Shown in pieces: positions 9,744 to 31,240 of a stretch of 64,000 bases of DNA; positions within the stretch are counted from its first letter, which is position 1; each line of letters begins with the position of its first letter. This DNA comes from a virus: the IMG/VR virus record IMGVR_UViG_3300032298_000424, positions 5,202-69,201 of that record; one strand, written 5' to 3'. A program made the position numbers and the translations under genes. The notes beneath the pieces are model-generated. The model made no database searches. It saw only the letters and a program-made list of their open reading frames with translations, and was not told where the DNA came from.

Positions 9744-10856
9744 ATGCCGTATACCGTTTTAACTGACAGGTTAGGGACTACGACACCGCAGTATTACGTA
9801 TTAGACGAAGTAATACCTGAACATCTTCGCGCTAATGAACGCTTCATGGAATTCCTTGAAGCTTATTTAGAGTGGCAGCAATCAACAGTTTATTCTCCTG
9901 GTAGTATTATAAACAAACTAGTCGATATTAAGAATATTGATAACGTTGCCGAAGAATTTCTACCGTATATTCAACGTGCTGTTGCAGGTCCAATTCCAAC
10001 AGTTACAGGTGTTGATCGTAGAAAGCTTTATAAGCAGATTATCGACTTATATCTAGCTAAAGGTTCATTGCCTTCATACGAAGCTTTATTTAATATATTA
10101 TTCCAAGATCAGATAGAACTTTATTTCCCCAGGGTTGATATGTTACAACCTTCCTCTGGGAAATGGAATGATGCTGATGGAAGATACGCTGATAATAATG
10201 GATTTCTATCTGATAGAAAATATTTACAAGACAGTTATTATTACCAAGATTACTCATATGTAATTAAAACAAGTAAGTCCTTCCAAGATTGGAAGGATAT
10301 AGTTACTAAAGTACTTCATCCAGCTGGATTCATCTTCTTTGGTCAAATTAAAGTAGTTTCTACTGCTTTAGTTGGCCAACAAAGATTAAAGACGAAGTTG
10401 GTGCAAATTGGTAGAGTAGTTGCTGAAGAAGCTACTAGACCTATCATCTTAGATACTGTAGCTATACCAATAAGTATAGCCGAAACTTATCGCGAGTTGT
10501 TGGGTACAATTATTACTCCAGTTGTTGGAGAAGCTATTGAGGGATTAACATCTAAACCAGCAATTCCACTTGGTCCAACATTTAAACACTTTGATCAGTA
10601 CAAATTCTTGATAGAAGAATTCGCTTCGAATTATGATGATGTTGTACTTGAAGGACCATGTTTAGGACTTAAGACCAATTTTGTACCTGTACTAAATAGA
10701 AATGTTATAGATGAAACGTATGAAAACGGCACAACGATATTAATGTCTTCCTTCTTGACAGTTCAACCAGCAGATTTAGCTGGAAGTTCATATAATGAGA
10801 CAATAGATTTACTTGATCCAACTTCAGGATCTGATGTTGTAGTTGAGCTCAACTGA
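9744..10856 (+). CDS. gp7: Baseplate wedge initiator, short gp7-like
   Basis: FLEAYLEW, LYLAKGS, LQDSYYYQDYSYVIK, LHPAGF.FFG motifs. Confidence 0.78.
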   Translation: MPYTVLTDRLGTTTPQYYVLDEVIPEHLRANERFMEFLEAYLEWQQSTVYSPGSIINKLVDIKNIDNVAEEFLPYIQRAVAGPIPTVTGVDRRKLYKQIIDLYLAKGSLPSYEALFNILFQDQIELYFPRVDMLQPSSGKWNDADGRYADNNGFLSDRKYLQDSYYYQDYSYVIKTSKSFQDWKDIVTKVLHPAGFIFFGQIKVVSTALVGQQRLKTKLVQIGRVVAEEATRPIILDTVAIPISIAETYRELLGTIITPVVGEAIEGLTSKPAIPLGPTFKHFDQYKFLIEEFASNYDDVVLEGPCLGLKTNFVPVLNRNVIDETYENGTTILMSSFLTVQPADLAGSSYNETIDLLDPTSGSDVVVELN

Positions 10857-10864
10857 TATAAATA
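10857..10864 (+). promoter_or_regulatory. T4-type late promoter TATAAATA upstream of gp8
   Basis: Exact TATAAATA in the intergenic region. Confidence 0.8.
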
Positions 10865-10894
10865 GACCATATATTCCTAAGGATTTTAAAAACC

Positions 10895-12361
10895 ATGTCT
10901 GCTATTATTACTACTAAATTTCGTTATCAAAACGCTAATACCTTGGTTCAAGGTTTAGCTGGAGAACTTGATGATGTTTATTATCTTGGTATAGGTCGAG
11001 CATTTGCTTGGTCTTCTGATTCTTCTCCTCCAACCCCAACTGATGTTCAATCAACTGAGTTTGATGCTCAGAGAAACTTATTAGCGCTTAAAAAGATAGC
11101 GCTTACAAACGTATCTCGTGCAATCCCTCGCTATAATTGGATTTCTGGTTCAACATACTCAGAATACGATGACCAAGATAGTGCTTTAAGTACAAAACAA
11201 TATTATGTGGTAACTGATGAGTTGAACGTCTATAAGTGCATCAAAGCTGGTACTTCAGGTTCATCTATCAAACCCGCTGGTACACCTACTTCTATTGGAT
11301 CTGTATTAGCAGACGGTTATCAATGGAAATATATGTACACATTATCAGGCGCAGACGTTGCTAAGTTTAATACATCTTCCTTTATTGCTGTGAAAAAATT
11401 AGAGTCAGATGATGATTCAGTTCAATGGGATGTTCAAGAAGCTGCACTTCCTGGTGCCATTCAAAGAATTAAAATAACGAACGGCGGTGTTGGTTACACA
11501 TCTAAACCTACTGTGACAATTACTGGTGATGGTATTGGTGCTTCTGTTATTGCAGCAGACGTTACACTTACTGGTGGCGTTGTTACAGAAATCTTGATGA
11601 ATACAGCAAGAGTTGGTAGCGGATATACAATAGCAAATGTAAGTTTTAGCGGTGGAACTCCTGTTACTCCAGCAACAGCAAGAGCAATCATCTCTCCAAA
11701 AGGAGGTCATGGTTCAAATCCTATTGAAGAACTAGGTGGCTTCTATGTTATTATCGACGTTAACCTAGTTGCAGATGAAGGTTCTGGAGATTTCTTAGTT
11801 GATAATGATTATAGACAAATTATGTTAGTAGCAAATCCACACCAAGTTGATGCAACAGCTGTACGTTTACTTGGTAAATGGACAGCAACTACAGCGTATA
11901 TTGTTGGAGATGTCGTTTATTATGATAATTATGCATACGTATGTGATACTCCTCATACTTCAGTTTCAACATTTGAGCCAGATATTGCTAAATGGACAGG
12001 ACCAAGTGTAGCTTCTGCAGCAACATTAAATAGTCTTACTACAATTACATACACTGGATTATCTGGTACTCTTGCAGCAGATCAACAAGTTATAGGTCAA
12101 ACAAGCGGTGCAATCGGTTATGTAGATAGCGTAGATACCGAAGATACTATAATAAAATTCCATCAAAATTCTACTACTGGATTTGGTAGTTTCCAAGAAG
12201 GTGAATCTATTACTATAGGCGGCGCTACAGCAACTATCGATTCAATAAGTGCACCAGAATATGTGCCAATGTCCGGCAAATTAGTATATCTTGAAAATTT
12301 ATCGCCTGTAAATAGAAACATAAATCAAACAGAAGATATCAAGTTAGTATTAGAACTATAA
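10895..12361 (+). CDS. gp8: Baseplate wedge subunit
   Basis: IITTKFR..NA, YLGIGR..W, PRYNW, VYKCI, DGYQWKYMY, GGHG.NP..ELG, SG.LVYLEN, QTEDIKLVLE motifs. Confidence 0.9.
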   Translation: MSAIITTKFRYQNANTLVQGLAGELDDVYYLGIGRAFAWSSDSSPPTPTDVQSTEFDAQRNLLALKKIALTNVSRAIPRYNWISGSTYSEYDDQDSALSTKQYYVVTDELNVYKCIKAGTSGSSIKPAGTPTSIGSVLADGYQWKYMYTLSGADVAKFNTSSFIAVKKLESDDDSVQWDVQEAALPGAIQRIKITNGGVGYTSKPTVTITGDGIGASVIAADVTLTGGVVTEILMNTARVGSGYTIANVSFSGGTPVTPATARAIISPKGGHGSNPIEELGGFYVIIDVNLVADEGSGDFLVDNDYRQIMLVANPHQVDATAVRLLGKWTATTAYIVGDVVYYDNYAYVCDTPHTSVSTFEPDIAKWTGPSVASAATLNSLTTITYTGLSGTLAADQQVIGQTSGAIGYVDSVDTEDTIIKFHQNSTTGFGSFQEGESITIGGATATIDSISAPEYVPMSGKLVYLENLSPVNRNINQTEDIKLVLEL

Positions 12362-19027: not shown

Positions 19028-20125
19028 ATGGCAGCTATTAACGTAAATCTAACCGACACCTTTAACGGGTGGAGACTAAAAACTAATCAGATTGGTGACT
19101 TTGTAGGAGACACTGCTGGTTTATTAACTGATGCAACTAATGTTGTTGCAGCTATTAATGAAGTAAGATCTGCAGCTCCTCTCGATGGTGTTATCTCTAC
19201 TGATGGTAATGAATTTAAAGTAAACGTAGATTCAGCAGATACATTTGAACTTGTATTAACAGCCGCTGGTAATTTATCAGTTACCGGTGAAATGACTGCA
19301 ACAAAGTTTAATGGTCCATTAACAGGCAATGTAACAGGCAATGTAACAGGTGCTGTTACAGGCAATGCATCAACTGCCACAACATTACAAAATGCTCGCA
19401 CAATCAATGGTGCTTCTTTTAACGGCTCTGCTAATATAACATTCAATACAGATGCAACTGCAGAAGGTAGTACTAATCTTTATTTCACGAATGCGCGTGC
19501 TAGATCAGCAATAAGTATTGCCGCTACAGGCGGTAATATTACATATAACTCAACGAGTGGTGAATTTAGTTTAACTAATGCTAATGTGGTTGCAGCTCTT
19601 GGTTATACACCTTGGCATTCAGGCAATGATGGAGCAAGCTCTGGTCTTGATGCTGACTTATTAGACGGTATGAATAGCGCTACAGCTGCAACTAATTCTA
19701 CTATCGCAGCACGTGATAGTTCAGGCAATTTAACAGCAAATGTGTTTAACGGTGTTGCAACATCAGCTAGATACGCTGACTTGGCAGAAAAATATACAAC
19801 AGACAAAGAATATCCAGTTGGAACTGTCATGGTGATTTCATTAAGTGCTGATTCAGAATGTACAGCTTCTTATTCTCCAGGTCAAATCGCAGTTGGTGTA
19901 ATCTCTGAGAAGCCAGCATTCTTGATGAATAAAGATGCTGATGGTCAAGCGATTGCTCTTCGTGGTCGAGTTCCAGTTAGAGTGATTGGACCAATTACAA
20001 AAGGCCAAACTGTAATTGCTAGTGTTGATGGCAAAGCAATTTATGGTGTATTAAACCCTGTTGCAATAGCGCTTGAAACAAATCAAGAATTCAAAGAAAA
20101 ATTAGTTGAGTGCGTGATATTATAA
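19028..20125 (+). CDS. Tail fibre/spike protein with C-terminal intramolecular-chaperone (peptidase G2-like autocleavage) domain
   Basis: N-terminal TDTFNGWRLKTN, TGNVTGNVTG repeats, LDADLLDG, C-terminal YADLAEKY...GVIS..PAFLMN..GRVPVRV. Confidence 0.75.
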   Translation: MAAINVNLTDTFNGWRLKTNQIGDFVGDTAGLLTDATNVVAAINEVRSAAPLDGVISTDGNEFKVNVDSADTFELVLTAAGNLSVTGEMTATKFNGPLTGNVTGNVTGAVTGNASTATTLQNARTINGASFNGSANITFNTDATAEGSTNLYFTNARARSAISIAATGGNITYNSTSGEFSLTNANVVAALGYTPWHSGNDGASSGLDADLLDGMNSATAATNSTIAARDSSGNLTANVFNGVATSARYADLAEKYTTDKEYPVGTVMVISLSADSECTASYSPGQIAVGVISEKPAFLMNKDADGQAIALRGRVPVRVIGPITKGQTVIASVDGKAIYGVLNPVAIALETNQEFKEKLVECVIL

Positions 20126-20553
20126 TGCATGAAGAAGTATTCTTTCAATTTGTAAAAAATCACGATAACTTATCACACTTAAGTTATACTGAAAATAGAC
20201 GCGAAGGTCAACAGATCATCGGTTTAAAGGTTGCTGGTATTCCAGGCGAAGATGATGATATTTTTGTTCCATACGTTGCTGAATTATTAAAAGAAGAAGA
20301 TACTACTATCATCGATCCAAACTATGATGCTGTTTATGAAAGCTTTACAGGTATCGATCATAACTTAGATTCAGTAGAATATATCAAAACCTTGGTAGAA
20401 TCTATGACAACACGTGAAGAGATATCTGTATTTTGTGTTAACAATATAGTTAAAAAATTAATCGACTGTAATATTGATGCAAGTAAAGTTTATGTAAGAG
20501 TTAAACCCCACTGGCCAACCGACTGGTGTGATCAGGTAATCGAGGTTCAATAA
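20125..20553 (+). CDS. Hypothetical acidic protein
   Basis: ORF; ATG at 20125 overlaps the upstream TAA (track start 20110 is GTG). Confidence 0.6.
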   Translation: MHEEVFFQFVKNHDNLSHLSYTENRREGQQIIGLKVAGIPGEDDDIFVPYVAELLKEEDTTIIDPNYDAVYESFTGIDHNLDSVEYIKTLVESMTTREEISVFCVNNIVKKLIDCNIDASKVYVRVKPHWPTDWCDQVIEVQ

Positions 20554-20939
20554 TGGCAACCACAGAACGCAATCCTAAAGCAAATATATTTCCAGATAAT
20601 AGTCCTATAACTACATTAAGAAATAATATTGTAGCTGGAAACAACATTACTGCTAGCGATATCAATTCTTTGACTAACTTAATAATGGCCTGGAAGGGTC
20701 ATTATCACACGTATGATGATGCATGGCAATTAGCTACTTATGGTAACAACGGTGATCGTGGCAATTACTATGAAGATAAAAACACTGGGCCTGCCGTTCG
20801 CACAATTACTGAAGTTTTTGTTCCCCCTGCACAAGTCTCATCAGGTACTGATATATATGCAACTCACCACAATGAAATGAGATTTTTTATCTCTCTCGTT
20901 GGAAATCATGTCCATAGAATTGATGACCGCACTAGTTAA
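20553..20939 (+). CDS. Small protein with two G..I.A...N......HxH..DD repeats; homologous to the leader of the 23134 peptide
   Basis: IVAGNNITASDINSLTNLIMAWKGHYHTYDD and VSSGTDIYATHHNEMRFFISLVGNHVHRIDD. Confidence 0.7.
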   Translation: MATTERNPKANIFPDNSPITTLRNNIVAGNNITASDINSLTNLIMAWKGHYHTYDDAWQLATYGNNGDRGNYYEDKNTGPAVRTITEVFVPPAQVSSGTDIYATHHNEMRFFISLVGNHVHRIDDRTS

Positions 20940-22162
20940 CGTAGTAAACTTTTATCTTCTACGATTAGACTTACTTTCTCTTTTAGTTCATTAAAATATT
21001 TTTCCCCAGCATTTAGAGGTATCAAGCCTCTAGCAATAGCATCATACTTAAATGTTGTCAGTTGAAGATCATGTTTAAGAGCAACTGATGCAAACCTAAC
21101 GCCTACATCTCGGCGCCATTTCCTAGATTTCATATCAAAAGCAAAGAAGTTACCAACTTGTCTAGTTGAGGTTATATCGTGCTCACTAATAAGCCAATCT
21201 AAAAATTCTTCAACTAAGCGTTGATTATCATAGTCGTTTTCTTCATATAGGTTTAATGCTTCATTAGCAGCAGCAAGTCCAATCACCGATCCGCTATTAG
21301 TCCATCCATGTACTATCCATTCGTTTTCTAATTGATTCCAAATTTGATTATGAATCGCAACAGCAGATAACGGTACATATCCAGCAGTAATACTCTTAGA
21401 TAGTATTATAAATGTTGGTTCTATTGGTAATGCATAGTAATGAAATGGTGAACCAGTCTTAAAAAATCCGGATGCAGATTCGTCTAATATTAGGTGAATA
21501 TCGTTAGCTACACAAAAATAGTTTAATTCATCCCAGAATTGATATGAACATTGCAATACACCAGACAAATAAGTGAAAGGTTCTATAACAATAGAACTAA
21601 TCTTGTCTACATCCAATTTTGCCAATTCGTTTAATGTTGCTTGCCCATCGTTTCCAAATGGTGATAATAATTTGATATTCTCTGGCCAATCGGGTAGGTG
21701 TTGTCCTAATCCACCCAAATCACTAATAGCTCCTGTTAACCATGTAGATCCATGGTAAGATCCTTTGAATGTGATGATCTTCGTCCTATTGCTTTTTTGT
21801 TTTAGACGAGTCATATAAGACAATCTTAAAGCAGACTCTACAGCATCGGAGCCAGAACTACCAAAGAAAAATTTCTGATGGTGTGAAAAATAAGCCGCTA
21901 ATCTTTTTGAGTATGTTACACCAATCTCAGCTAACATACTATTATTATGTCTACTGAACGGTAAAGTTTGGGAGGCATTATAAATAGCATTGGATATTGA
22001 ATGTTGAGAGTAACCCAGGTTGCAGTTAATATTGCCGCACTGGGCATCTAGGATCCGCTGACCAGACTTTGCAATCAGGTGAAAGCCGTCAGCGGAACTG
22101 ATGATCAATGGTTCTAAGTCCGAGTGATTGGTGTAAGGAAGAACATAGTTATAATTAAACAT
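20936..22162 (-). CDS. Class III PLP-dependent aminotransferase (BioA/omega-amine family), inverted relative to neighbours
   Basis: LGY, SGSDAVESAL, SYHGST, IVIEP, LILDE..SGF..TG, SKSITAGYVPLS (PLP lysine), HGWT.SG; likely start MFNYN at 22162. Confidence 0.9.
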   Translation of the reverse strand: MFNYNYVLPYTNHSDLEPLIISSADGFHLIAKSGQRILDAQCGNINCNLGYSQHSISNAIYNASQTLPFSRHNNSMLAEIGVTYSKRLAAYFSHHQKFFFGSSGSDAVESALRLSYMTRLKQKSNRTKIITFKGSYHGSTWLTGAISDLGGLGQHLPDWPENIKLLSPFGNDGQATLNELAKLDVDKISSIVIEPFTYLSGVLQCSYQFWDELNYFCVANDIHLILDESASGFFKTGSPFHYYALPIEPTFIILSKSITAGYVPLSAVAIHNQIWNQLENEWIVHGWTNSGSVIGLAAANEALNLYEENDYDNQRLVEEFLDWLISEHDITSTRQVGNFFAFDMKSRKWRRDVGVRFASVALKHDLQLTTFKYDAIARGLIPLNAGEKYFNELKEKVSLIVEDKSLLR

Positions 22163-22171
22163 GAGGATATA

Positions 22172-23131
22172 ATGAAACCTATAGTATTTTTTCAATGCGG
22201 TGAAACTCAAAGTACACCATGGCTAGATGCTATCCAAACTTGGAATTCAGATTCAGATATAAAAGGATTTTGGATAAATCCAAAGCATCCGCAATCATAT
22301 CTATATCACTTTGAAAAGAAAGAAAACAAGATAGTTTTCAATAAAAATGTTGGTTATGTAGAAGGATCTGATTTTGTAATTACTAAACAATTCGTGCAAC
22401 CTGGCATGGATATGAATCGATCAGTAACAAAGGGTATCAATATAGATTTTATCATTGAATGGTTAAATGCCAACGATGGTAAAGCTTTAGGATTCGGAAC
22501 ATTTTTAAGTAGCGGATCACATGTCGATATTATCCAAAACAGTGTATACTATACTAGAGATCCTTGGATGGGTGGTCATATATTAGATATTGAAAAAAAT
22601 GAATTCATATCTAGCGATGATAACAATAAATTGAGCACTGTTACTTGGTTTTATGCATATAAAGTAAAAAATTTACCTATCTATCTTTTAGTATTTAATC
22701 CGTCAACGACTACGATGGGAGATAATGTAGAATTCGAAACCGAAACTAATAGATATAGAATAATGGATCCTCACATGGGATACATGTCTACTCAATTTTT
22801 AAAACCAAAGATGAGTAAAAATGCATATCCATTAGAAGACAAATGGTATGTCGTAAAGGGTGAAGAGTTTAGTTTTGAAGTTGGTGCTTTAAGTACAATT
22901 AAACTTGGTTTAGGAGAAATCATAGATCCAAGCTTAATTAAGGTTTTAAGTGATTTAAATTTAGAACATTTGGGTGATAATAAATATAAAGCTAGATTTA
23001 AGAATGGTCAACAGTCTGCTTATATTAGTATTAGAATGAACACAGGTAATACGATGGATTGGACATTTATCAATAGTGGCAATCGGTTAGTATATAATAT
23101 TAAGATTAGCAAACATTACGAAGAGGTTTAA
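22172..23131 (+). CDS. Hypothetical protein immediately upstream of the Cys-rich peptide
   Basis: ATG at 22172 with GAGGA RBS; no motif recognised. Confidence 0.7.
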   Translation: MKPIVFFQCGETQSTPWLDAIQTWNSDSDIKGFWINPKHPQSYLYHFEKKENKIVFNKNVGYVEGSDFVITKQFVQPGMDMNRSVTKGINIDFIIEWLNANDGKALGFGTFLSSGSHVDIIQNSVYYTRDPWMGGHILDIEKNEFISSDDNNKLSTVTWFYAYKVKNLPIYLLVFNPSTTTMGDNVEFETETNRYRIMDPHMGYMSTQFLKPKMSKNAYPLEDKWYVVKGEEFSFEVGALSTIKLGLGEIIDPSLIKVLSDLNLEHLGDNKYKARFKNGQQSAYISIRMNTGNTMDWTFINSGNRLVYNIKISKHYEEV

Positions 23132-23133
23132 AA

Positions 23134-23340
23134 ATGGGTATAGAAGATGTAAGCACGTTTACTACTGGATCTACTATTCCAGCAGAAAAGGCCGCAGCAG
23201 ATACCGTTTCTGCTGATACATTTAGACAAATGCTGGATGTGCTAGAATCATTAGCATCTCACAGCCACATATTTTATGATGATTATAACACTGTCTGCGA
23301 ATGTCAGTGTGCTTGTGCTTGTGGCCGTGGGACTGTATGA
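23134..23340 (+). CDS. Putative RiPP-like precursor peptide with C-terminal CECQCACAC (CxCxCxCxC) core
   Basis: 68 aa, GAGG RBS, five Cys at alternate positions, ATGA overlap with the following radical SAM gene. Confidence 0.8.
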   Translation: MGIEDVSTFTTGSTIPAEKAAADTVSADTFRQMLDVLESLASHSHIFYDDYNTVCECQCACACGRGTV

Positions 23341-25058
23341 AAACTATTTGGTTAAAAACCGAAGCACAAAAACAAAGGCAGCAAGATCATAAAGCATCAG
23401 TAATAGAAACTGATGGACAGTTCCAATTCCTTAGCGAGAAAATTATCACTCCAAAGGGATTGGATAAAATTAATAAACTAATCTCAGTTGTTCCAAAGGA
23501 AAATGAGACTGTACTTAGTATAAGCAATACGAAATATCTGTTTAGTGAATTGAAGCAGATGAATCTTATATTAACTAATGCATGTAATTTGTCATGTTCT
23601 TATTGTTATGAGCAGCATAAGAAAGACTTTGGTAGATTTACCAATGAGTCTCTCTTGACTGCATATCGATTCTTAAAAGATGCAAATAATAACCAAAAGA
23701 AAGTATTTCAATTTTTTGGCGGCGAGCCTTTAATCCACAAAGATATCATCTTAGATTTCCTTCGTAAGAATAAAGAAGAATTACAAATTAACTCACGCGG
23801 TGAAACCAATACAGTTATCGGTATCGTCACTAATGGGTTATTACTGACTCAGCCTTTAGTCGATGAATATTTCTCGCACGACTTTACATATATGCTTATC
23901 TCGCTAGATACAGATAAATCTGAGGTCGATCATAGAGAGATCGGTCAAGATAAGATAAACAAGCTCATGGATCAGATCCAAACAATCCCAGAAGAGCCAA
24001 AATTTCAAAAGCGAGTCACTGTACGTTGTACTCTTGCCAGAGAGAATGCACCTTATTTTGCAGAGTTTGTTGATAACTTATACGAGCGAGGAATTAGACG
24101 TTTAGTAGTTCATCCGCTCATATTAGATTCTGCGAGAGGATTCATTCAATGGACTGAGCAAGAATGGAATACTTTGCATAATGACATATTAAACTCTCTA
24201 GATAAGTATGAAGACTTACAAATACATTTTAGTGAAGGTGTTGGTAAGAAAGGCGAAGAGAACTGTATGATTGGTTCTGATATGATAGCTATTGATGCCA
24301 GTGGAGATTTTTCAGGTTGTTATTTTTTCACAAATCAAAAAGGCGGTTCAACTGCCGATACTATATTAGGCAATGTTTTTAATAATACGATCTATATCGA
24401 TCGTTATAAGCACTTCCAAAAAGAATATGCTAAGATGTTTGAAGAGGAAGAACAATGTAAGACATGTGACTATAAGAATGCATGCTATCAGTGTCCAGCA
24501 GGTAACTTAGATACTGGCACACGTATGTTTAGACCAGATGATATGTGTCAAAAGATCGTTAAGCTTTATGTAGATTTGCAAGAAGATATTGCTAAGAAAC
24601 AATTTAAGATTAAGTATGATACATTAGTTCGCGCATTACATACTGAAGGATATGAACTAACATTCCTTAAAGCTATCAGCTATATGTTATTTTATTATGT
24701 TTATCAATATCATCCATCACTTGATAAAGTGCATAATGATCTCGTTAATAAATTTAAAAATCCTCAAAGGTTGTTGGGTTTTTGGTTAGAGATCATGGAA
24801 GGTAAACATAAAGAACTAGATGAAGTTAAACCAGAAGAATTCCTCGATACAATACAAGAATTGATTGGTGATAAACAAGTAAGCATCGATGACTTTTATT
24901 ATCAAATTTTGGCTAAAAGAAACATGCCAACTGGTAGAATTGTTAAAGTACAAAATCAAATGCAAGAAGTATTCTTCTTAGCATTACTCCACGTATTGAT
25001 ATTGGCGTCCGATGATCGGGCTTTAGATGATGCAATCAGCTATAAACTTCTACAATAA
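23337..25058 (+). CDS. Radical SAM/SPASM maturase 1 with C-terminal helical extension
   Basis: CNLSCSYC, FFGGEPL, VTNG, SPASM C..G..IDASG...C and CKTC..KNACYQC...C; likely start MKTIW at 23337. Confidence 0.92.
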   Translation: MKTIWLKTEAQKQRQQDHKASVIETDGQFQFLSEKIITPKGLDKINKLISVVPKENETVLSISNTKYLFSELKQMNLILTNACNLSCSYCYEQHKKDFGRFTNESLLTAYRFLKDANNNQKKVFQFFGGEPLIHKDIILDFLRKNKEELQINSRGETNTVIGIVTNGLLLTQPLVDEYFSHDFTYMLISLDTDKSEVDHREIGQDKINKLMDQIQTIPEEPKFQKRVTVRCTLARENAPYFAEFVDNLYERGIRRLVVHPLILDSARGFIQWTEQEWNTLHNDILNSLDKYEDLQIHFSEGVGKKGEENCMIGSDMIAIDASGDFSGCYFFTNQKGGSTADTILGNVFNNTIYIDRYKHFQKEYAKMFEEEEQCKTCDYKNACYQCPAGNLDTGTRMFRPDDMCQKIVKLYVDLQEDIAKKQFKIKYDTLVRALHTEGYELTFLKAISYMLFYYVYQYHPSLDKVHNDLVNKFKNPQRLLGFWLEIMEGKHKELDEVKPEEFLDTIQELIGDKQVSIDDFYYQILAKRNMPTGRIVKVQNQMQEVFFLALLHVLILASDDRALDDAISYKLLQ

Positions 25059-26145
25059 ACGAGATAAGCCTCTTAATAATGTTAAGATGCTTATCATTTA
25101 CCTTGGGAATAAGTGTAACTTTGATTGTGTATATTGTGATCGAGGTTATATTGAATCGCTTGGCGGTCAATCGTTAAACGGAAACACAACTCAAGAGTTA
25201 CAAGATTTTTTCTTGTGGGCAGAAAAACAAGAAAATAAAGTTGAATGGGTATCTTTCCATGGTGGTGAGCCATTGTTATTCGCAAAACGCATGGAACAAT
25301 GTCTTGAATGGTTGATGCCAATCGCTGAACGCAATGGTTGGAAAGTTGGAATGACCACCAATGGTTCTCTAGTAAAAGAAAATCAGCATATATTTGAGAA
25401 GTATTCTGGCAAACTTGGTGCAACTATAAGCTATGACTTCATGTTCCAAGAAGAGAATCGTGATAGATTGAATGTAGTAGAGATGGCTGAAGTATTAAAT
25501 CAGCATTGTTTTGATTGGAAGTGGCAATATGTTCTGCCTATTGAAGATAGACGTGCATTCTCATTTGAAAATGTACAATCTATAGTAGACACGTGTTATA
25601 GCACTGGATGTAAGACTGTAAATGTCATTCCTCTAAGACATCATCGCGGAGAAGACAAATTTGATGTTATAATAGATCGAATTAATTTACCGCAATTCTT
25701 TGGTGCATTTCTCGAGTTTATCCAAATATTGTATATAAAAAAGTTAAATATTTTTATCGATGGTAATTATGATAAGATTGACAAAGCATATTTTGCAGAA
25801 CATAATAAGCTAATCTTATCTCCCGACGGATATCTGTATCCAGAATTCGATTTCTTAGAATATAAAGTTGAGAATACCCGCATAGGCAAATGGCAAGATG
25901 GAGTAGAAGTTTGGCAACCCATCGGAGATCAAAGTAGAATACATGAATCGTGTGATTCATGCGAACAAAAAGCAAGTTGCGGTTTAAAATATCTTTATAA
26001 GTTGTTCGACAAACAACCGCAAGGAAGTTGTAAAGATTTCTATAAATTTGTTGATGTAGCTATAATGCATAATGCTGAATTGAAAAAGGAAAAAAGTTTA
26101 TTCCAGAGGATCGGTATAGATAATCAATTCAAGGTGAATAAATGA
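25027..26145 (+). CDS. Radical SAM protein 2 with partial SPASM domain
   Basis: CNFDCVYC, FHGGEPL, TTNG, LSPDGYLYP, CDSC..KASC..C. Confidence 0.9.
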   Translation: MMQSAINFYNKRDKPLNNVKMLIIYLGNKCNFDCVYCDRGYIESLGGQSLNGNTTQELQDFFLWAEKQENKVEWVSFHGGEPLLFAKRMEQCLEWLMPIAERNGWKVGMTTNGSLVKENQHIFEKYSGKLGATISYDFMFQEENRDRLNVVEMAEVLNQHCFDWKWQYVLPIEDRRAFSFENVQSIVDTCYSTGCKTVNVIPLRHHRGEDKFDVIIDRINLPQFFGAFLEFIQILYIKKLNIFIDGNYDKIDKAYFAEHNKLILSPDGYLYPEFDFLEYKVENTRIGKWQDGVEVWQPIGDQSRIHESCDSCEQKASCGLKYLYKLFDKQPQGSCKDFYKFVDVAIMHNAELKKEKSLFQRIGIDNQFKVNK

Positions 26146-27200
26146 ATAGAGACGATTTCGACAATTATCCAGATCTAGCACAATATTGGTTAAGGGAAGA
26201 TGCACTACGTTCATTAGACTATGATGTATATTTTAGTGTTGGTACAAGATACTATTGTGATGCTGGTTGCAAAGTATGTTATATTAAAGATCACTTAAAA
26301 GAAACGAAAGATTTATCTAATTTTGGAAATGATTTAGATAAACACCAAGAAGAATGGTTTAAGTTTTTTAAATATTTCGGTGTAATTAGAACTAATGACG
26401 ATCTATACTATCTAAAGCATAATCATCAAAAAGAGTATGAGTGGTATCAAAAATATGGTCATATGTTTGAATTATGTATTACTGATAATGCTATATTTAG
26501 GACACTAGAATTAGATGACATTAATTTAGCCAGTATTGCAGACATCTCAATAAGTACAGATTTTTTGAATCATGTTGGTGTAGAAAAAGTATTGGTTGCA
26601 TGTAAACAGCTTTATGATAAATTTGGCGTTAGAAAGATAAAGTATATTGACTGCGGTCACCCAGAACTATTTAAAGATATTATAGAATGGGCTAATAAAT
26701 TAGATTTACATAATTGTGTACATCATGATTTTAGAACTAATCACAGAGATATACTACACCATGCTTGGGCAGAATACCAAAATACGTGGGTAATTAATGA
26801 TGATAAAGGTTTGATGCACATCTATAGAGAATCAGTACATCTTTACTATGATAGATTTTTCTTTTCATCAGATGATGCTACCGACTTAACGATTGAACCG
26901 TTTTATCAATTTGACAATAGTATAGACATAAAAGCTTTTATGGTTAAGATGTTACAAGGTAAACAAACCTTATATAATCTTTGGAAAAATAGACCCATTG
27001 AAAAAAGATTTAGAGATTACTATACGACAACCATGCAATATATTATCAATGAAAATTTTAATTTTATCCCTAGAATTATGATGTCTCCAAAGGCAAAGTT
27101 TTTTTACAAATTACTAGAAGAAGGATGGATCCAAACTCCATACGGTCTTCTTAAGTCATCTGAATCAGATAAGATTATACCAATTATAGGCACAAAATGA
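26142..27200 (+). CDS. Divergent radical SAM-like protein 3
   Basis: CDAGCKVC (CxxxCxxC) near the N-terminus but no GGEP motif; ATGA overlap with upstream gene. Confidence 0.6.
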   Translation: MNRDDFDNYPDLAQYWLREDALRSLDYDVYFSVGTRYYCDAGCKVCYIKDHLKETKDLSNFGNDLDKHQEEWFKFFKYFGVIRTNDDLYYLKHNHQKEYEWYQKYGHMFELCITDNAIFRTLELDDINLASIADISISTDFLNHVGVEKVLVACKQLYDKFGVRKIKYIDCGHPELFKDIIEWANKLDLHNCVHHDFRTNHRDILHHAWAEYQNTWVINDDKGLMHIYRESVHLYYDRFFFSSDDATDLTIEPFYQFDNSIDIKAFMVKMLQGKQTLYNLWKNRPIEKRFRDYYTTTMQYIINENFNFIPRIMMSPKAKFFYKLLEEGWIQTPYGLLKSSESDKIIPIIGTK

Positions 27201-28528
27201 GCTTTAGTAAATTTCAAACACAATCTGGTAAAGTATTCTATTATAGAAACTTAGACAATAGTCTTCATAATGATAAGGGTGAGATTTTATCTTTACCTCC
27301 TAAAGAAGGTTATGAATTCTTTGAAAATGTACAACATAATTTTGGTGTGCAACATAAGACGAATAAACCAACTGCATTACGCATTCTTCTAGGACATGCG
27401 TGTAATTACTCATGCACATATTGCATGCAAAAAGATATTGGCAATCCTGATGAGAAACCACAAAATTTTTGGTTAGAATCATTTGTAGAATCTATTAACA
27501 AATATCTTGACTTAGAAAACTTAGAACGCATTGAACTTTGGGGTGGAGAACCATTCCTTTATTGGAATGATATGGTTCCGATCATGAAATTACTTGATGG
27601 TCCAGGTCGACACTTCTATATCTCTACAAATGCATCACCACTAAGACAAAAGCACGTAGATTTCTTCAAGACTTTAACTGCTAGTGTCATGATGGGTATT
27701 TCACACGATGGTCCAGGTCATGAGCGTCTTCGCGGAGAAGATATCTTTGATAAGAAGAGTGTTGTTGATGTTATCAAGCAATTTGATGATATGAGTCCTA
27801 AGGTACAATATAGTTTTAATTCTGTTGTCTCTGCTACAAACTTTGATATGTTTGAGATTAATGATTATTTTAAAGCAGTTAAAGATAAGTTGGGTTTGAA
27901 GCATGCGAGGATCAGTTACATTCCTGCACGAGTTTATGACGATACAGATTCTAAAAACTCAGCTGATCATGTTATTAAAGGTGATGATCTACCCAAGTTT
28001 AAGAAGATAGTCAATGACTATATTAAAGCTGCTATCAAGCAATTGAGAGAGGGCGGAGATCGCATATTAAACTCTAATGTTATCGATGGAGATGCTGGAG
28101 TTCTTAAGTATGCCGCTTTAACTCGACATCAAATACCTATTACGATGACGTCGAATTGTGGAGCTGATGCAGCTGACATCCTTTCTATGGATATTATGGG
28201 ACAAGTTAGATTATGCCCACACACCTCTGAGAAATTTAAAGGAGGTCATATCAAAGATATTAAAAGTGTTAAGATCATACAATTAGATTTAGATAGAAAA
28301 CACGAGCATTGTTATACATGTCCAGTTAGAAGACTTTGTAAGTCTAGTTGTCCTATTAAATTTCCCGATGAAGTGTTTATGCATAATTGTAGAGTAGAAA
28401 AGATTTGGTATTCTGCTATTCAACAAAACGCATTCTCATTATTGTTTAATGAACCCATAGAATTATTAGAAACTGGATTAAATGAAATTAGACCTAAAGA
28501 AGATACAAGAGCACCGATCTCAGCTTGA
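27197..28528 (+). CDS. Radical SAM/SPASM maturase 4
   Basis: CNYSCTYC, LWGGEPF, STN, ISHDG, SPASM CGA..DIMG.VRLC and CYTCPVRRLCKSSCP...C. Confidence 0.92.
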   Translation: MSFSKFQTQSGKVFYYRNLDNSLHNDKGEILSLPPKEGYEFFENVQHNFGVQHKTNKPTALRILLGHACNYSCTYCMQKDIGNPDEKPQNFWLESFVESINKYLDLENLERIELWGGEPFLYWNDMVPIMKLLDGPGRHFYISTNASPLRQKHVDFFKTLTASVMMGISHDGPGHERLRGEDIFDKKSVVDVIKQFDDMSPKVQYSFNSVVSATNFDMFEINDYFKAVKDKLGLKHARISYIPARVYDDTDSKNSADHVIKGDDLPKFKKIVNDYIKAAIKQLREGGDRILNSNVIDGDAGVLKYAALTRHQIPITMTSNCGADAADILSMDIMGQVRLCPHTSEKFKGGHIKDIKSVKIIQLDLDRKHEHCYTCPVRRLCKSSCPIKFPDEVFMHNCRVEKIWYSAIQQNAFSLLFNEPIELLETGLNEIRPKEDTRAPISA

Positions 28529-29237
28529 GAATCATTCTCTTCTTGTAACTAATACTATACAATCTATTGAAGATCTTAGAATCTTCATGAAATATCATGT
28601 CTTTGCGGTATGGGATTTCATGAGTCTATTAAAGACTATACAGCACAATGTGGTGCCAACTAGTAACATATGGTTACCAACTCCTGGCACAAGGTCTGAT
28701 ATAGCTAGGATGATTAATGAGATAGTCCTCTGTGAGGAATCTGATATATCTCCCGATGGTAAATCATCTATAAGTCATTTCGACCTATACTTACAGTCAA
28801 TGATGGAAGTAGGTGCTGATACAATGCCTGTTAGAAATTACCTGGATGCGGTTAGCAAGTTTAATTCACACATAGACTGTGAGTATGTTCCAAAGGCTTC
28901 TATGGATTTCGTAAAAACCACATTTGATGCTATAAAAATGGGTCCTCATTGTGCTGCAGCTTCATTTTGTTACGGTAGAGAATCAGTAATCCCTGCAATG
29001 TTTAAAAGATTACTTAAACAGATTGATATATCAGAAACTGATGCTCCTAAGTTTCACTATTACTTAGAAAGACACATCCAGGTTGATGGAGAAAGTCATG
29101 GACCAATGTCAGAACATTTGGTTAATTATTTTTGTAAGGATGATCCATTCCTTATTCATGAGGCCGAACAAGCGGCGATTACAGCTATCAAAGCTAGAAT
29201 TAAACTATTTGATGACATAGAATCGCAACTCATATAA
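28482..29237 (+). CDS. DUF3050 heme-oxygenase-like (HDO) metalloenzyme
   Basis: FM..HVFAVWDFMSLLK, INEIVL.EESD, SHFDLYL, GRE.VIP.MF, YYLERHI.VDG..HG motifs. Confidence 0.85.
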   Translation: MKLDLKKIQEHRSQLENHSLLVTNTIQSIEDLRIFMKYHVFAVWDFMSLLKTIQHNVVPTSNIWLPTPGTRSDIARMINEIVLCEESDISPDGKSSISHFDLYLQSMMEVGADTMPVRNYLDAVSKFNSHIDCEYVPKASMDFVKTTFDAIKMGPHCAAASFCYGRESVIPAMFKRLLKQIDISETDAPKFHYYLERHIQVDGESHGPMSEHLVNYFCKDDPFLIHEAEQAAITAIKARIKLFDDIESQLI

Positions 29238-29240
29238 ATA
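29233..29240 (+). promoter_or_regulatory. T4-type late promoter TATAAATA
   Basis: Exact match overlapping the DUF3050 stop, upstream of 29277. Confidence 0.75.
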
Positions 29241-29276: not shown

Positions 29277-29612
29277 ATGTCTCAGTTAGTTAACCTAGTT
29301 ATAGACCAAGGCTCAGACTTTGTGGCCACATTGGACATTGAAGATTCCATTGGTACGCCAATTAATCTTACATCATATACAGTTCGTGGTCAGATTAGAA
29401 AAACATATACGTCTTCCACAGCTGTATCAATTGGCTGTGTAAAGACTACTAATCAAGGTGAAGTAAAATTGACCTTGACATCAACACAAACTAGCGGAAT
29501 GCGAGACGGTCGTTATGTCTATGATATAGAAATTGTTCATTCAACACTTGGTACAGTTATCCGAGTCGTTGAAGGACAAGTAACAGTAACACCAAGAGCA
29601 ACTAGACCTTAA
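29277..29612 (+). CDS. Small virion structural protein (BppU N-terminal-like)
   Basis: NLVIDQGSDF, GQIRK.Y.S, LTLT..QT, GRYVYDIEI, RVVEG.VTVTP motif common in T4-like aquatic phages. Confidence 0.7.
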   Translation: MSQLVNLVIDQGSDFVATLDIEDSIGTPINLTSYTVRGQIRKTYTSSTAVSIGCVKTTNQGEVKLTLTSTQTSGMRDGRYVYDIEIVHSTLGTVIRVVEGQVTVTPRATRP

Positions 29613-29623
29613 GGGATTTGTAG

Positions 29624-29851
29624 ATGTCTACCGCGTTAAGATCAAAGATTAAACTTGACACACCAGTTACAGTACGTACTTTTGCCTTAGGTATTACGTC
29701 ACTTAACTTATTAGACTTAAATGATGTTGATGCTACCGAACTAGAAGACGGTGCAATGATGATATATGATGCTGATACTGCAAAATTCAAATTAACAGCT
29801 ACGGTTGATCACCCAAGATCAAAGGTTAAAATCATCGGAGGAAAGTACTAA
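29624..29851 (+). CDS. Small structural protein
   Basis: L.DLNDVD...EDG....YD....KF fibre-type repeat; C-terminal I.GG.Y. Confidence 0.6.
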   Translation: MSTALRSKIKLDTPVTVRTFALGITSLNLLDLNDVDATELEDGAMMIYDADTAKFKLTATVDHPRSKVKIIGGKY

Positions 29852-29854
29852 GCC

Positions 29855-31240
29855 ATGGCAACCATTATTAAAATCAAAAACTCAGGTATAAGTGGAGCAC
29901 CCAGCACACTTGCGACCGGCGAGTTAGCATATTCATACTTACAGCAATTACCAATTGAAGGTGTCGTAAGTACTAACGGAGGTGATCGCCTCTACATCGG
30001 TACAGGCACAGAAACTGCAGGTGAAGCGAATGATATCGTACACATTGGTGGTAAGTACTTTATGGACATGTTGGACCATGAAAATGGTGTCTTAAGTCCA
30101 AACTCTGCCATAATTACTGATTCAGACAGTAAAGTCAATCAATTAAATATTGATAACCTTCGATTAGATGGTAATACTTTATCTGTTACACAAACAAACG
30201 GTAATTTAAATCTTGAAGCTAATGGTACTGGTACAATTAGTTTTAATTCTGATGTAGACTTAACTAATATTAACGTTGATACTATATCATCTTCAAGAAC
30301 TGATGGTAAGATCTTTATCGAACCATCTGGCACAGGTTATTTACAAATAACTAGTACAAATGCTGTACGTGTTCCAGTTGGTAATACTGCATCCCGTGAT
30401 GCATCACCTCTTGCAGGTATGTTCCGCTTCAACACAACGACGAACGTGTTTGAAGGTTACGACGGTATTGCATGGAATGCTATTGGTTCTCGTTTACAAG
30501 ATATTGATGGTAACACATATGTTTCTCCAGAAAATTCTCCTGGCGCAAATAACAATCAATTACGTATGTTTACGGATGGTCTTGAAAGATTAAGAGTAGA
30601 CAACGATGGTGCATCAAAATTCTCAGCTGACTTAACAGCAGCAACGCCAATTGGTACAAAGATTTTAAACAATAAGATCTCTACATTCGGCGCCGATATC
30701 CTTTACATAGATCCATCAACTGGTGGTTCAAATACTGGTTCTGTTGTTATTGAAGGTAATTTGACAATTAAAGGTACTACAACAACCGTCAATTCTGCAT
30801 CAGTTCAATCAAATAATCCAACTTTGATTTTAGGTATGCAATCTGATTCTGAAGGTACAGAAACTGCACTTACTGCGCCAGATGGTTTAGATAAAGGTAT
30901 GGAATTTAGATGGCACAATGGAACAGCTGCTAAATCAGGTTTCTTCGGTTATGACACTTCTGCAAATAGATTTACATTTATTGAAGATGCAACTAACACT
31001 AGCGATACTTTTTCTGGTACAGCATCAGATGTACGTTTTGGTAATGCATTACTAACAGAATTATCTTTCTCAACATTTACCAATAACTCAATCCCTTGGG
31101 TTGACGTAGATGGTGACACAGGTTTTATCACCGGTGACGGTACAAGTGTTTACAACGGCGGTGATACAACTGGTCAAGTATTACAGATGAATGCATCTGG
31201 TTTACCAGTATTCTCACACATTGATTGTGGCACATATTAA
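29855..31240 (+). CDS. Tail fibre-like structural protein
   Basis: IKIK.S...P..L..GELAY N-terminus, VPVG.TA.R..GMFRFN..FEGY, EGNLTIKGTTTTVNS, C-terminal IDCGTY. Confidence 0.75.
   Translation: MATIIKIKNSGISGAPSTLATGELAYSYLQQLPIEGVVSTNGGDRLYIGTGTETAGEANDIVHIGGKYFMDMLDHENGVLSPNSAIITDSDSKVNQLNIDNLRLDGNTLSVTQTNGNLNLEANGTGTISFNSDVDLTNINVDTISSSRTDGKIFIEPSGTGYLQITSTNAVRVPVGNTASRDASPLAGMFRFNTTTNVFEGYDGIAWNAIGSRLQDIDGNTYVSPENSPGANNNQLRMFTDGLERLRVDNDGASKFSADLTAATPIGTKILNNKISTFGADILYIDPSTGGSNTGSVVIEGNLTIKGTTTTVNSASVQSNNPTLILGMQSDSEGTETALTAPDGLDKGMEFRWHNGTAAKSGFFGYDTSANRFTFIEDATNTSDTFSGTASDVRFGNALLTELSFSTFTNNSIPWVDVDGDTGFITGDGTSVYNGGDTTGQVLQMNASGLPVFSHIDCGTY

Follow-up and report, generated by a model that had tools for sequence, protein, structure and literature searches.

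A phage cassette that joins a cysteine-tailed peptide and its predicted two-module HxH partner protein to four radical SAM-fold genes

Clusters of radical S-adenosylmethionine (rSAM) genes have been reported from T4-like and jumbo phages for more than 15 years without a substrate, as far as the available text of the reports goes (PMC2853527, PMC5332604, PMC5468394), raising the question of what such enzymes modify and where the product acts. One cluster of this kind lies in a 64,000-nucleotide (nt) stretch of viral DNA, hereafter the window (positions 5,202 to 69,201 of IMG/VR virus record IMGVR_UViG_3300032298_000424), which is part of a 69-kb record whose completeness is estimated at ~42%. 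Ten tightly packed open reading frames (ORFs) occur there between a tail-fibre-like gene and a set of structural genes, and a preliminary description, made from the letters alone, had read them as a phage pathway for a peptide made by the ribosome and then modified post-translationally (RiPP) or something close to one, centred on a 68-amino-acid (aa) peptide with a CxCxCxCxC tail; the peptide, the enzymes and the flanking genes all lie where it had placed them. Asking what this block is for, we find that the peptide has a constant companion, here called g128, built from two modules of the kind that makes up the peptide's own conserved part. We lean, with somewhat better than even confidence, to the view that the block is a phage-specific rSAM system that tailors the exposed Cys tail of a retained peptide–g128 complex and travels with tail-fibre and baseplate genes.

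The peptide ORF has the features of a translated gene. An AAGAGG Shine-Dalgarno sequence lies 8 nt upstream of its ATG, and its stop codon overlaps the start of the first rSAM gene, rSAM1 (ATGA, 23337-23340, 4 nt), coupling the two translationally in the window. Comparison of 231 locus pairs across the final 44 codons yields a mean nonsynonymous change (pN) of 0.21 and a mean synonymous change (pS) of 0.78, the latter near saturation; the ratio of 0.26 indicates a coding ORF under purifying selection. The family, 88 clusters at 90% identity and all of them unnamed, shares a layout of a variable N-terminus of ~25 aa, a helix-HxH-x3-D module, an aromatic and acidic stretch of the FYDDY type, and the Cys tail, in which a C-x unit is repeated three to five times and followed by an invariant R-G and two final residues. 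Conservation is strong over the last ~42 residues, including an invariant Asp four residues past the second His, and M33, L40, H43, H45, D49, C59, C61, C63, R65 and G66 are invariant in 18 diverse members. A variable N-terminus attached to a constant Cys ‘core’ reverses the usual pattern of diversifying bacteriocins, and we propose that the peptide is not a classical leader-plus-core bacteriocin precursor. Loci whose peptides have only three Cys still hold all four rSAM-fold genes. Searched against PDB sequences, the peptide profile returned four rows at E 0.9-4.8, none of them a fibre or spike protein or otherwise informative, and a local Pfam scan gave it no match to PF27846 (rSAM-target Cxxx repeat).

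The sequence of g128 ties it directly to the peptide. Seven residues are invariant in 19 g128 homologues (H50, H52, D56, G64, H119, H121 and D125), the peptide profile aligns to the second g128 module (hhalign probability 94.8%, E 4.9e-8), and the hidden Markov models (HMMs) of the two families match each other, with HxH-x3-D invariant in both. Judged by these profile comparisons, the peptide module is homologous to each half of g128. An HMM search of 1.84 billion proteins found 263 representatives of g128 relatives at E≤1e-3; among the 150 matches listed, a CxCxC tail is seen in none, and the HxH motif occurs exactly twice in 141. Some variants carry an insert between the modules and others C-terminal extensions. 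In P0189 (389 aa), a lactonase-type beta-propeller (PF10282, E 1.8e-6) stands between two HxH modules, an arrangement suggestive of a two-module scaffold on which variable binding domains are presented, and in P0205, P0218 and P0236 a Hint (intein/hedgehog-type) autoprocessing domain follows an extension of ~140 aa. A Hint-bearing form also occurs in two cassette loci, L041 and L042 (10001-11359), where the Cys-tailed peptide is the next gene and rSAM genes come after it. A locus search with P0189 matched only through its propeller insert, and searches with P0200, P0241, P0209 and P0222 yielded no locus. The window's g128 had no tblastn match in 50,697 phage records; the diverged relative P0209 matched two of them, RP12 and RP31, only. 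In the ESM Atlas, g128 resembles only unnamed viral clusters at 0.91-0.93; a weak further lead (0.79; TM 0.49) points to viral clusters where PF27846 is carried by roughly one member in four.

Structure prediction supports an association of the two proteins. The modelled g128–peptide complex reached an ipSAE of 0.69, against 0.01 for the best of three controls; 58 of 80 solved complexes attain the mark used for this score, as do 2 of 110 mismatched pairs, figures that apply only approximately here since our own alignments went into the prediction. At least 80% of contacts are shared between runs, with a pLDDT (the model's per-residue confidence) of at least 64 for the partner. The lowest-error contacts place peptide helix 30-40 on g128 helices 40-47 and 109-117, in a three-helix arrangement, and the predicted interface takes in both g128 HxH regions and peptide residues 44-55. 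Residues 56-68, the Cys tail, are outside the confident interface, the tool regarding any residue it does not name as uncertain. The two proteins are thus predicted to bind. A search for longer relatives of the peptide returned three proteins, one of which, P0241 (230 aa), combines in a single chain three helix-HxH stretches and, after them, a Cys tail, and looks like a natural fusion of g128 and peptide. The others carry inserts of ~140 aa: ahead of the HxH module in P0239, and within the Cys-x repeat in P0240 (206 aa), where the insert begins with Cys, ends with Asn followed by Cys and is, judged by eye, intein-like. The P0240 insert has no Pfam match, and in a locus search relatives on viral contigs matched the insert only, apart from one cassette locus (L045). 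The preliminary description had supposed that the product may stay in the cell or virion, a view that gains support from the g128 homology, the predicted binding and the P0241 fusion.

The enzymes encoded beside the peptide form a graded series. Three of the four genes that had been called rSAM, rSAM1 to rSAM3, exceed the Pfam gathering score for PF04055 (29.5), and the fourth, g352, is placed in the superfamily tentatively, by its CxxxCxxC motif and its predicted fold. By its PF04055 score and Cys pattern rSAM1 is a probable rSAM/SPASM enzyme, its SPASM score (PF13186, 20.3 bits) falling just short of the 21.5 cut-off; rSAM3 likewise scores 25.1 against a cut-off of 27 for TIGR04085 (SPASM). 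Cysteines are retained throughout: C83/87/90 with C310, 328, 374, 377, 383, 386 and 404 in 26 of 26 rSAM1 homologues; C30/34/37 with C309, 312, 318 and 335 in 22 of 22 for rSAM2; and C69/73/76 with C321, 340, 372, 375, 381 and 385 in 19 of 19 for rSAM3, the auxiliary pattern including CxxCx5Cx2-3C. These sets would correspond to a full SPASM domain, a twitch-like remnant and a near-full SPASM domain, respectively. The three proteins are paralogues, with hhalign probabilities of 100% for rSAM1–rSAM2 (E 1.4e-66), 98.7% for rSAM2–rSAM3 and 94.3% for rSAM1–rSAM3, and all three match phrog_1802. An apparent insertion in rSAM1 of some relatives was rejected, as tblastn gave a normal length and the extra length belonged to the neighbouring paralogue.

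All of the best named relatives of these enzymes, PapB, the CXXX-repeat family, SCIFF and QhpD, are maturases of peptides or proteins. PapB (NF047865, cut-off 340) is the top-scoring named family for rSAM1 (116.5 bits) and rSAM2 (57.0) and gives 49.2 with rSAM3. For rSAM1, the CXXX-repeat maturase (TIGR04115) scores 79.3 against a cut-off of 350, the SCIFF maturase (TIGR03974) 74.7 against 425, and the anaerobic sulfatase maturase (TIGR03942) 53.4 against 349.45, and QhpD (TIGR03906, cut-off 453) scores 73.2 with rSAM1 (E 1.6e-20) and 49.7 with rSAM3 (E 2.2e-13). With every score far below its curated cut-off, we assign the enzymes to no named RiPP class. The solved sequence closest to rSAM1 is 5wgg (CteB; E 2.7e-12), titled ‘Structural Insights into Thioether Bond Formation in the Biosynthesis of Sactipeptides’.

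The fourth enzyme, g352, has no Pfam or NCBIfam match, and its profile found nothing useful among PDB sequences. Of 20 homologues, 19 retain its C39/43/46 (CxxxCxxC), and the top 12 VIA matches of its AlphaFold model (pLDDT 89.3) are all radical SAM proteins at Z 8.2-10.9, led by MoaA (1tv7_A; Z 10.9, root-mean-square deviation (rmsd) 4.6, 235 residues aligned) and SuiB (5v1q_A; Z 10.7, rmsd 4.8, 245 aligned) and including ChlB, SkfB, anSME, EpeE, CteB and others; MoaA is also its best Foldseek match (E 2.6e-3). Against rSAM1 it reaches an hhalign probability of only 29% (E 5.8e-4). Motif and fold matches together make ‘four radical SAM genes’ a fair description, with the auxiliary clusters lost in graded fashion. 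The head-to-tail overlaps noted in the preliminary description are borne out by the coordinates and span 4 to 47 nt: beyond the peptide/rSAM1 junction, they measure 32 nt for rSAM1/rSAM2, 4 nt for rSAM2/g352, 4 nt for g352/rSAM3 and 47 nt for rSAM3/DUF3050.

To place the cassette among genomes, we compared 31 loci, comprising the window, 28 IMG/VR loci, one mis-binned contig of a metagenome-assembled genome (MAG; L030) and Ralstonia phage RP12; a 26-locus set within this work consists of 25 IMG/VR loci from an rSAM1 protein-pattern scan, plus RP12. The preliminary description had named, as the finding that would undo it, homologous rSAM blocks that usually lack a Cys-rich peptide; the peptide is present in all 31 loci, adjoining rSAM1 or a few genes from it. 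Peptide and rSAM1 occur together in 26/26 loci, and g128 in the same 26/26 (RP12 and L025 having been added by profile search) as well as in the window; rSAM2, g352 and rSAM3 are present in the 26-locus set wherever the contig extends far enough. L030, L041, L042 and L045 each hold the peptide, g128 and all four rSAM-fold genes. Gene order varies: g128 lies between g352 and rSAM3 in L021, L023, L024 and L030, and the peptide precedes a ~300-aa ORF in RP12, L020, L022, L025, L041 and L045. Linkage that survives such rearrangement argues for a functional unit.

Outside phages, a pattern scan for the peptide in 185,579 cellular species genomes (one per species) found no relative, and a second scan of these genomes, for g352, found a single contig, L030 (14.8 kb). 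This contig is assigned to an uncultured Alteromonadales MAG and carries only phage genes, tail-fibre genes and the cassette among them; the assignment is probably a binning artefact and at best a hint of the host. As each scan used one pattern, distant cellular relatives are possible. Among the 50,697 phage records, rSAM1 matched 17 by tblastn, of which only RP12 and RP31 are close (41% identity), and these two are the only records with relatives of rSAM1, the peptide and g128; megablast of the 9.1-kb block against the same records gave no match. On this sampling of genomes the cassette appears to be restricted to phages. In MT835472 and 13 other records of human faecal ‘Bacteriophage sp.’ there are genes for rSAM/SPASM proteins that share 22-26% identity with rSAM1; taken with the Atlas leads to PF27846, they suggest that phage rSAM/peptide systems may be more widespread.

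The neighbourhood of the cassette recurs as well. Tail-fibre, baseplate or virion genes adjoin it in 10 of 11 lineages, the lineages having been grouped by eye, without a tree. By tblastn, 20 of 26 loci, and L030 as well, encode a homologue of the C-terminal domain of the window's tail-fibre-like protein near the cassette or upstream of it, and homologues of this domain flank the cassette in L015, L020, the group of L021, L023 and L024, and L030. A virion structural PHROG lies by the cassette in L013 (E 6e-225), tail-fibre PHROGs lie directly beside it in the jumbo contigs L022 and L025, and the L041/L042 and L045 lineages have tail-fibre and baseplate wedge matches near it. In the window itself, PHROG matches on both sides bear out the earlier placement of the block between tail-fibre and structural genes (Table 1).

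Table 1. Features of the cassette and its boundaries in the window (positions are those of the 64,000-nt stretch)
Feature	Description	Coordinates	Strand	Basis
Tail-fibre-like gene	365 aa; upstream boundary, context and not core	19028..20125	+	PHROG tail-fibre families phrog_19602, 30742, 454
g142	142 aa; variable, only in T4-like relatives	20125..20553	+	No Pfam, NCBIfam or PHROG match
g128	128 aa; two helix-HxH-x3-D modules, core cassette member	20553..20939	+	phrog_31780 match, conservation
Aminotransferase	Class III (pyridoxal phosphate, PLP) aminotransferase; accessory	20936..22210	-	Aminotran_3 (PF00202) 154.3 vs 30.5 bits
g335	~320 aa; N-terminal alpha/beta part and C-terminal Ig-like sandwich	22172..23131	+	AF2 model, pLDDT 81.4
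Putative precursor peptide	68 aa; CxCxCxCxC-RG tail	23134..23340	+	ORF, family conservation, Shine-Dalgarno
rSAM1	7-Cys SPASM-type region; ~70-aa N-terminal and ~150-aa C-terminal extensions	23337..25058	+	PF04055 62.4 bits
rSAM2	Reduced twitch-like set of 4 auxiliary Cys	25027..26145	+	PF04055 39.1 bits
g352	rSAM-fold protein; CxxxCxxC, without conserved auxiliary-cluster Cys	26142..27200	+	phrog_36229 3.1e-39, model
rSAM3	SPASM-type region; 6 conserved auxiliary Cys	27197..28528	+	PF04055 44.2 bits
DUF3050 protein	HamA/MgoB-like heme-oxygenase-fold oxygenase; frequent, not universal	28482..29237	+	PF11251 258.2 vs 22.2 bits
Downstream structural genes	111 + 75 + 461 aa; downstream boundary, context	29277..31240	+	PHROG matches

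Around this core are proteins with a looser attachment. The DUF3050 protein had been described as a heme-oxygenase-like di-iron enzyme, an assignment that now looks doubtful. Its closest solved relative is PDB 9vwb_A (phmmer E 1.8e-47), which is HamA of fragin biosynthesis; in the available text of its report, HamA has a heme-oxygenase fold, contains a single iron, binds 2-oxoglutarate (2OG) and further oxidises a valine hydroxylamine held on a carrier domain of a nonribosomal peptide synthetase (NRPS) (PMC12522199). H39, E85, H99, R166, H198 and R239 of the window protein align, as counted by hand, with HamA H40, E84, H96, R167, H199 and R240, the six residues named there as Fe or 2OG residues (PMC12522199), and 19 Asp, Glu or His positions are the same in at least 13 of 14 cassette homologues. 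With a mono-iron, 2OG-binding enzyme as nearest relative, a di-iron oxygenase is not the best guess; our best guess, from sequence relationship, is that the protein would carry out N- or C-oxygenation of a tethered substrate. DUF3050 is present in 17 loci of the 26-locus set and does not lie within the DNA of L018, L022, L025, L041, L042 or L045, though that DNA continues past the rSAM genes.

The class III aminotransferase is likewise where the preliminary description had it, and it proves not to be a core member: beyond the window it occurs in 9 of 26 loci (tblastn), all close relatives. It reaches neither of two equivalog families, scoring 172.5 against 405 for bioA and 146.6 against 450 for the daptide aminotransferase. 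We class it as accessory, along with DUF3050 in some lineages. Between the aminotransferase and the peptide lies g335, which has no Pfam, NCBIfam or PHROG match and no ESM Atlas score better than those of shuffled proteins (≤0.83), and whose profile has one weak match among PDB sequences, the uncharacterised 4opw (E 0.0016). The best VIA matches of its model, for example to ICAM-3 (1t0p_B; Z 7.2, rmsd 3.0, 77 aligned) and also to a phage SU10 tail protein (7z47_G; Z 6.8), cover only residues ~200-319 and all fall below Z 8, so that the Ig-like sandwich may simply be a common arrangement. Homologues 20-98% identical to g335 occur in 20 loci (tblastn), and a ~300-aa ORF adjoins the peptide in relatives. 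For g142, tblastn matches are found only in part of the loci, at 23-93% identity.

The gene content, the conservation, the peptide–g128 homology, the predicted binding and the fusion are observations, to which we add by inference a metal site, a chemistry, a timing and an association with the virion. The conserved part of the peptide is one HxH module, to which g128 would add two, giving a pseudo-trimeric bundle of three modules that brings three HxH motifs together, perhaps around a metal as at the tips of phage spikes and fibres. The (Cys-x)3-5-Arg-Gly tail would be left free, to serve, perhaps with the adjacent invariant Asp and with the Tyr, as the substrate of the three rSAM paralogues and g352; the likeliest chemistry would be either Cys-derived thioether cross-links like those of ranthipeptides, QhpC or sactipeptides, or a different oxidation of Cys. 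The HamA-like mono-iron oxygenase could add an oxidative step in most lineages, and the aminotransferase a further one in the window's clade. The product would be neither cleaved nor exported: the modified peptide–g128 complex would be made late, with the structural genes, and would probably act at or on the tail-fibre or baseplate apparatus, possibly as a tail or virion accessory.

This scheme has a bolder form, to which we give tentative credence and which we think more probably wrong than right: that the heterodimeric, pseudo-trimeric (2+1) HxH metal module, with a protruding Cys-repeat tail cross-linked or oxidised by four rSAM proteins, is a chemically hardened or metal-chelating tip for adsorption or penetration. 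On that doubtful supposition, and with the same reserve, the cassette would be the first machinery dedicated to maturing a component of a phage tail or baseplate post-translationally. Nowhere in the 69-kb record, itself ~42% complete, does PAAR_motif (PF05488) have a match at E≤1, which speaks neither for nor against g128 and peptide as a spike tip. A more speculative route would begin with conversion of Cys to formylglycine. Sulfatases carry the motif C-x-P/A-x-R, which the C-x-C-x-R at the end of the peptide tail resembles. The resulting aldehyde might then be transaminated by the class III aminotransferase and the amine N-oxygenated by the HamA-like enzyme to give a protein-borne metal ligand of the N-hydroxy or diazeniumdiolate type, a sequence of steps that would explain the odd mix of enzymes.

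Several observations weigh against the scheme as a whole. The g128 profile matches nothing in PDB sequences at E≤10, and with no PDB relative of g128 or the peptide the link to the HxH motifs of fibres and spikes is one of motif. The fusion P0241 is a single protein cluster on 2 contigs, its first two modules matching with weak HMM E values of 0.004 and 0.001 (3-sequence search). The complex score measures the confidence of a model, was obtained with our own alignments and concerns homologous chains, which the model may stack for that reason alone. The chemistry is a guess, since no rSAM score comes anywhere near an NCBIfam equivalog cut-off. As to timing, only one TATAAATA motif precedes the operon, at 186 nt upstream of the g335 ATG, and the window has as many such motifs as chance predicts. 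As to the virion, the L017/L026 lineage has no structural neighbour, structural modules fill so much of a T4-like genome that adjacency there is weak evidence, and the g128 homologue of RP12, ORF074, is annotated as a hypothetical protein and not as a virion protein. Finally, an ordinary RiPP would also show a SPASM gene with a conserved ‘leader’ helix encoded directly upstream.

That last reading, which we regard as unlikely though the strongest of the competitors, would make the helix-HxH region a leader, g128 a stand-alone chaperone that binds the leader in the manner of PqqD, and the Cys region a core that is cross-linked and then cleaved by a host or unrecognised protease, yielding a diffusible or intracellular effector for use against competitors, against defence or in host takeover. 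It accommodates a short ORF translationally coupled to a SPASM enzyme, rSAMs whose best family names are all RiPP maturases, an invariant C-terminal R-G that could be a recognition site, a model in which g128 holds the ‘leader’ and leaves the tail free, and enzymes of natural-product type, namely the HamA-like oxygenase and an aminotransferase for which the daptide RiPP aminotransferase is the fourth-best NCBIfam match. By the general definition of a RiPP the precursor is encoded with its modifying enzyme, as it is here; the protease or transporter that is usual, though not obligatory, is absent, for among the ten block proteins Pfam, NCBIfam and PHROG reveal no protease, exporter or immunity family, in keeping with the preliminary description, which had seen no protease or exporter, and the loci with mapped genes have no protease, transporter or immunity gene either. 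It is also the N-terminus that varies, and not the Cys core; a chaperone homologous to its substrate, found with propeller or Hint domains or fused to the substrate, would be odd; and no cassette protein has a Pfam or NCBIfam PqqD match at E≤0.01 that would mark a RiPP recognition element, the Pfam matches of rSAM1 to rSAM3 at that threshold being Radical_SAM, Fer4_12 and SPASM only. If instead the block were a relative of the pathways to pyrroloquinoline quinone (PQQ) or mycofactocin, its FYDDY and Cys residues would be cross-linked, oxidised by DUF3050, transaminated and excised as a redox-active or metal-binding small molecule. PQQ synthesis uses PqqE, PqqC and PqqA, the same kind of mix as the rSAM/SPASM enzymes, heme-oxygenase-fold enzyme and peptide with conserved Tyr and acidic residues seen here. 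Diazeniumdiolate metal ligands are made by pathways that include enzymes of the HamA family, according to the available text of PMC12522199. We nonetheless hold such a cofactor or metallophore to be very improbable, there being no peptidase in the block, DUF3050 and the aminotransferase being dispensable in several lineages, the whole C-terminal 42 residues being conserved where a di- or tripeptide would suffice, and the fusion and the domain-decorated g128 forms pointing to a protein as end-product.

Two further accounts take the peptide out of the enzymes' path. The rSAM, DUF3050 and aminotransferase proteins might have small molecules, nucleic acids or host proteins as their targets, as auxiliary metabolism, with the peptide and g128 as structural HxH proteins that happen to be neighbours. 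Multi-rSAM islands with no known substrate are on record in T4-like phages (PMC2853527, PMC5332604, as far as their available text goes), the one substrate of HamA described in the available text of PMC12522199 is a carrier-tethered amino acid and not a ribosomal peptide, and g352 lacks auxiliary clusters; against this stand the strict linkage that peptide, g128 and all four rSAM-fold genes keep despite reordering, in T4-like contigs as well as in RP12-like and other jumbo ones, the ATGA overlap that couples peptide to rSAM1, and named rSAM relatives that are peptide or protein maturases, so that we judge auxiliary metabolism improbable. Alternatively the Cys tail might go unmodified and bind metal or an Fe-S cluster, as a metallochaperone or cluster scaffold for the four Fe-S enzymes or for a metal-loaded tail tip. 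Its alternating Cys-x repeat and HxH motifs do look like metal ligands, and all four neighbouring enzymes need [4Fe-4S] clusters; this account is the least credible of all and hardly to be expected, as it leaves four dedicated rSAM proteins without a substrate, the same enzymes accompany tails of 3 to 5 Cys, and Pfam and NCBIfam detect no IscU- or NfuA-type Fe-S scaffold among the cassette proteins. An rSAM system that modifies the tail of a retained peptide–g128 complex thus remains the reading we prefer.

The wider window shows what kind of virus carries the cassette. It encodes T4-type baseplate and tail proteins (tail protein phrog_350; baseplate wedge subunits phrog_219 and phrog_438), and near-identical DNA is held by freshwater and lake metagenome runs, with at least half of the sampled words in five runs from four studies, the possible source not counted; the virus is a freshwater T4-like phage. 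No RNA runs were among the 24 runs returned for near-identical DNA. Just downstream of the block, the 461-aa protein (29855-31240) matches phrog_15769, the ‘structural protein’ phrog_697 and phrog_6005, and a late-promoter-like TATAAATA motif (29233-29240) lies directly before the 111-aa gene. The window contains 9 TATAAATA motifs, where 9.9 are expected, and all 9 are on the + strand. Several stand 15-45 nt ahead of gene starts (1796, 10857, 29233, 31970 and 48916), and in strand bias and placement they resemble T4-type late promoters, though their total is that of chance. Scans of the window for sigma-70 promoter-like and terminator-like sequences stayed at shuffle level (61 found against 59.4 expected and 5 against 5.3, respectively). 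Elsewhere in the window, the gene after the gp5-like gene (5985-7385) matches endolysin family phrog_181 (E 5e-99), with a chitinase/GH19-like C-terminal part, and 41485-43167 matches phrog_1458, phrog_36869 and, weakly, a DNA methyltransferase PHROG. In other cassette loci, a MazG-like pyrophosphatase (phrog_1247) lies a few genes upstream of the cassette (L022:2325-3476, L025:3747-4757, L041:6894-7859), and L007-L011 have an extra ~480 bp (~10806-11290) between rSAM2 and g352, genes that overlap by 4 nt in the window.

These results offer one phage rSAM island a candidate substrate and a predicted partner, and they tie the cassette to the surroundings of tail-fibre genes in myovirus lineages that are unrelated to one another. 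Should the product prove to be a modified virion protein, rSAM cross-linking would join the few covalent modifications on record for phage particles, and seven small genes that can be expressed in E. coli would offer an experimentally simple handle on the purpose of phage iron-sulfur enzymes. A HamA-type oxygenase with no NRPS gene among the cassette proteins would widen the substrate range known for DUF3050.

Bacterial rSAM/SPASM maturases with Cys-rich peptides are well-known makers of released RiPPs. The cassette shares with the PapB, SCIFF and sactipeptide systems a short Cys-rich peptide directly upstream of an rSAM/SPASM gene, and differs from them in having four rSAM-fold genes per peptide, no protease or exporter, a ‘leader’ that is an HxH module homologous to the partner protein, an apparent confinement to phages and a place in tail-fibre neighbourhoods. 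Another analogy is QhpC, the small Cys-rich gamma subunit of quinohemoprotein amine dehydrogenase, which is cross-linked by the rSAM/SPASM enzyme QhpD and stays in the complex. By that analogy the cassette peptide would be kept as a subunit of a complex and not released; unlike the Qhp system, the cassette has neither dehydrogenase subunits nor a periplasmic export signal, and the partner is a two-module HxH protein. The fibre tips of T4 carry HxH iron sites. The P2 spike protein gpV has an Fe ion in its apex domain, according to the available text of its report (bioRxiv 10.1101/2023.02.25.529910). Like these, the cassette would set its HxH motifs, three in number, on a predicted pseudo-three-fold axis, with a presumed metal site; unlike them, it would draw three modules from two chains (2+1) or from one fusion chain and not from a homotrimer. 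We know of no HxH tip with a Cys-repeat tail and dedicated rSAM enzymes.

Other phages come closest in gene content. ORF074-ORF080 of RP12 and RP31 are the same cassette, with ORF074 as g128 homologue, ORF075 of ~295 aa, three rSAM genes (ORF076, ORF077 and ORF079 in RP12), a g352 homologue (ORF078) and DUF3050 (ORF080); an unannotated 65-aa peptide lies at 82889-83086 of the RP12 genome (NC_041911), and ORF072 and ORF073, annotated as virion structural, are just upstream. These phages differ from the window in that their proteins are 30-42% identical, the peptide stands ahead of the ~300-aa ORF, there is no aminotransferase, and they are phiKZ-related and not T4-like. In its available text, the paper on the two phages lists the enzymes under ‘other genes’, names no peptide and annotates the RP12 DUF3050 homologue as MgoB-like (PMC5468394). 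Clustered rSAM genes in T4-like genomes are also known from Campylobacter phages CP220 and CPt10, with 11-12 rSAM genes (PMC2853527), and from a marine T4-like genome of Tara, with 12 (PMC5332604); rSAM1 tblastn shows no similarity to these phages, and neither paper, in the portions available, names a substrate peptide or partner. The DUF3050 protein belongs to the same Pfam family as HamA, PvfA and MgoB, of the fragin, Pvf and mangotoxin-regulating clusters, with the Fe and 2OG residues conserved. HamA works with the N-oxygenase HamC on carrier-tethered valine, as its available report has it (PMC12522199), and unlike such clusters the ten cassette proteins include no NRPS or HamC-type family (Pfam, NCBIfam). 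That a SPASM enzyme can place thioether cross-links in a protein is described for methanogens in the available text of PMC13692751. In the literature searched, no paper describes a Cys-tailed peptide or an HxH partner alongside the rSAM genes of a phage cassette. The enzyme superfamilies, and the logic of a Cys-rich peptide paired with an rSAM/SPASM enzyme, are known; the restriction to phages, the 2+1 HxH architecture, the four-enzyme set and the linkage to tail fibres appear, in that literature, to be new.

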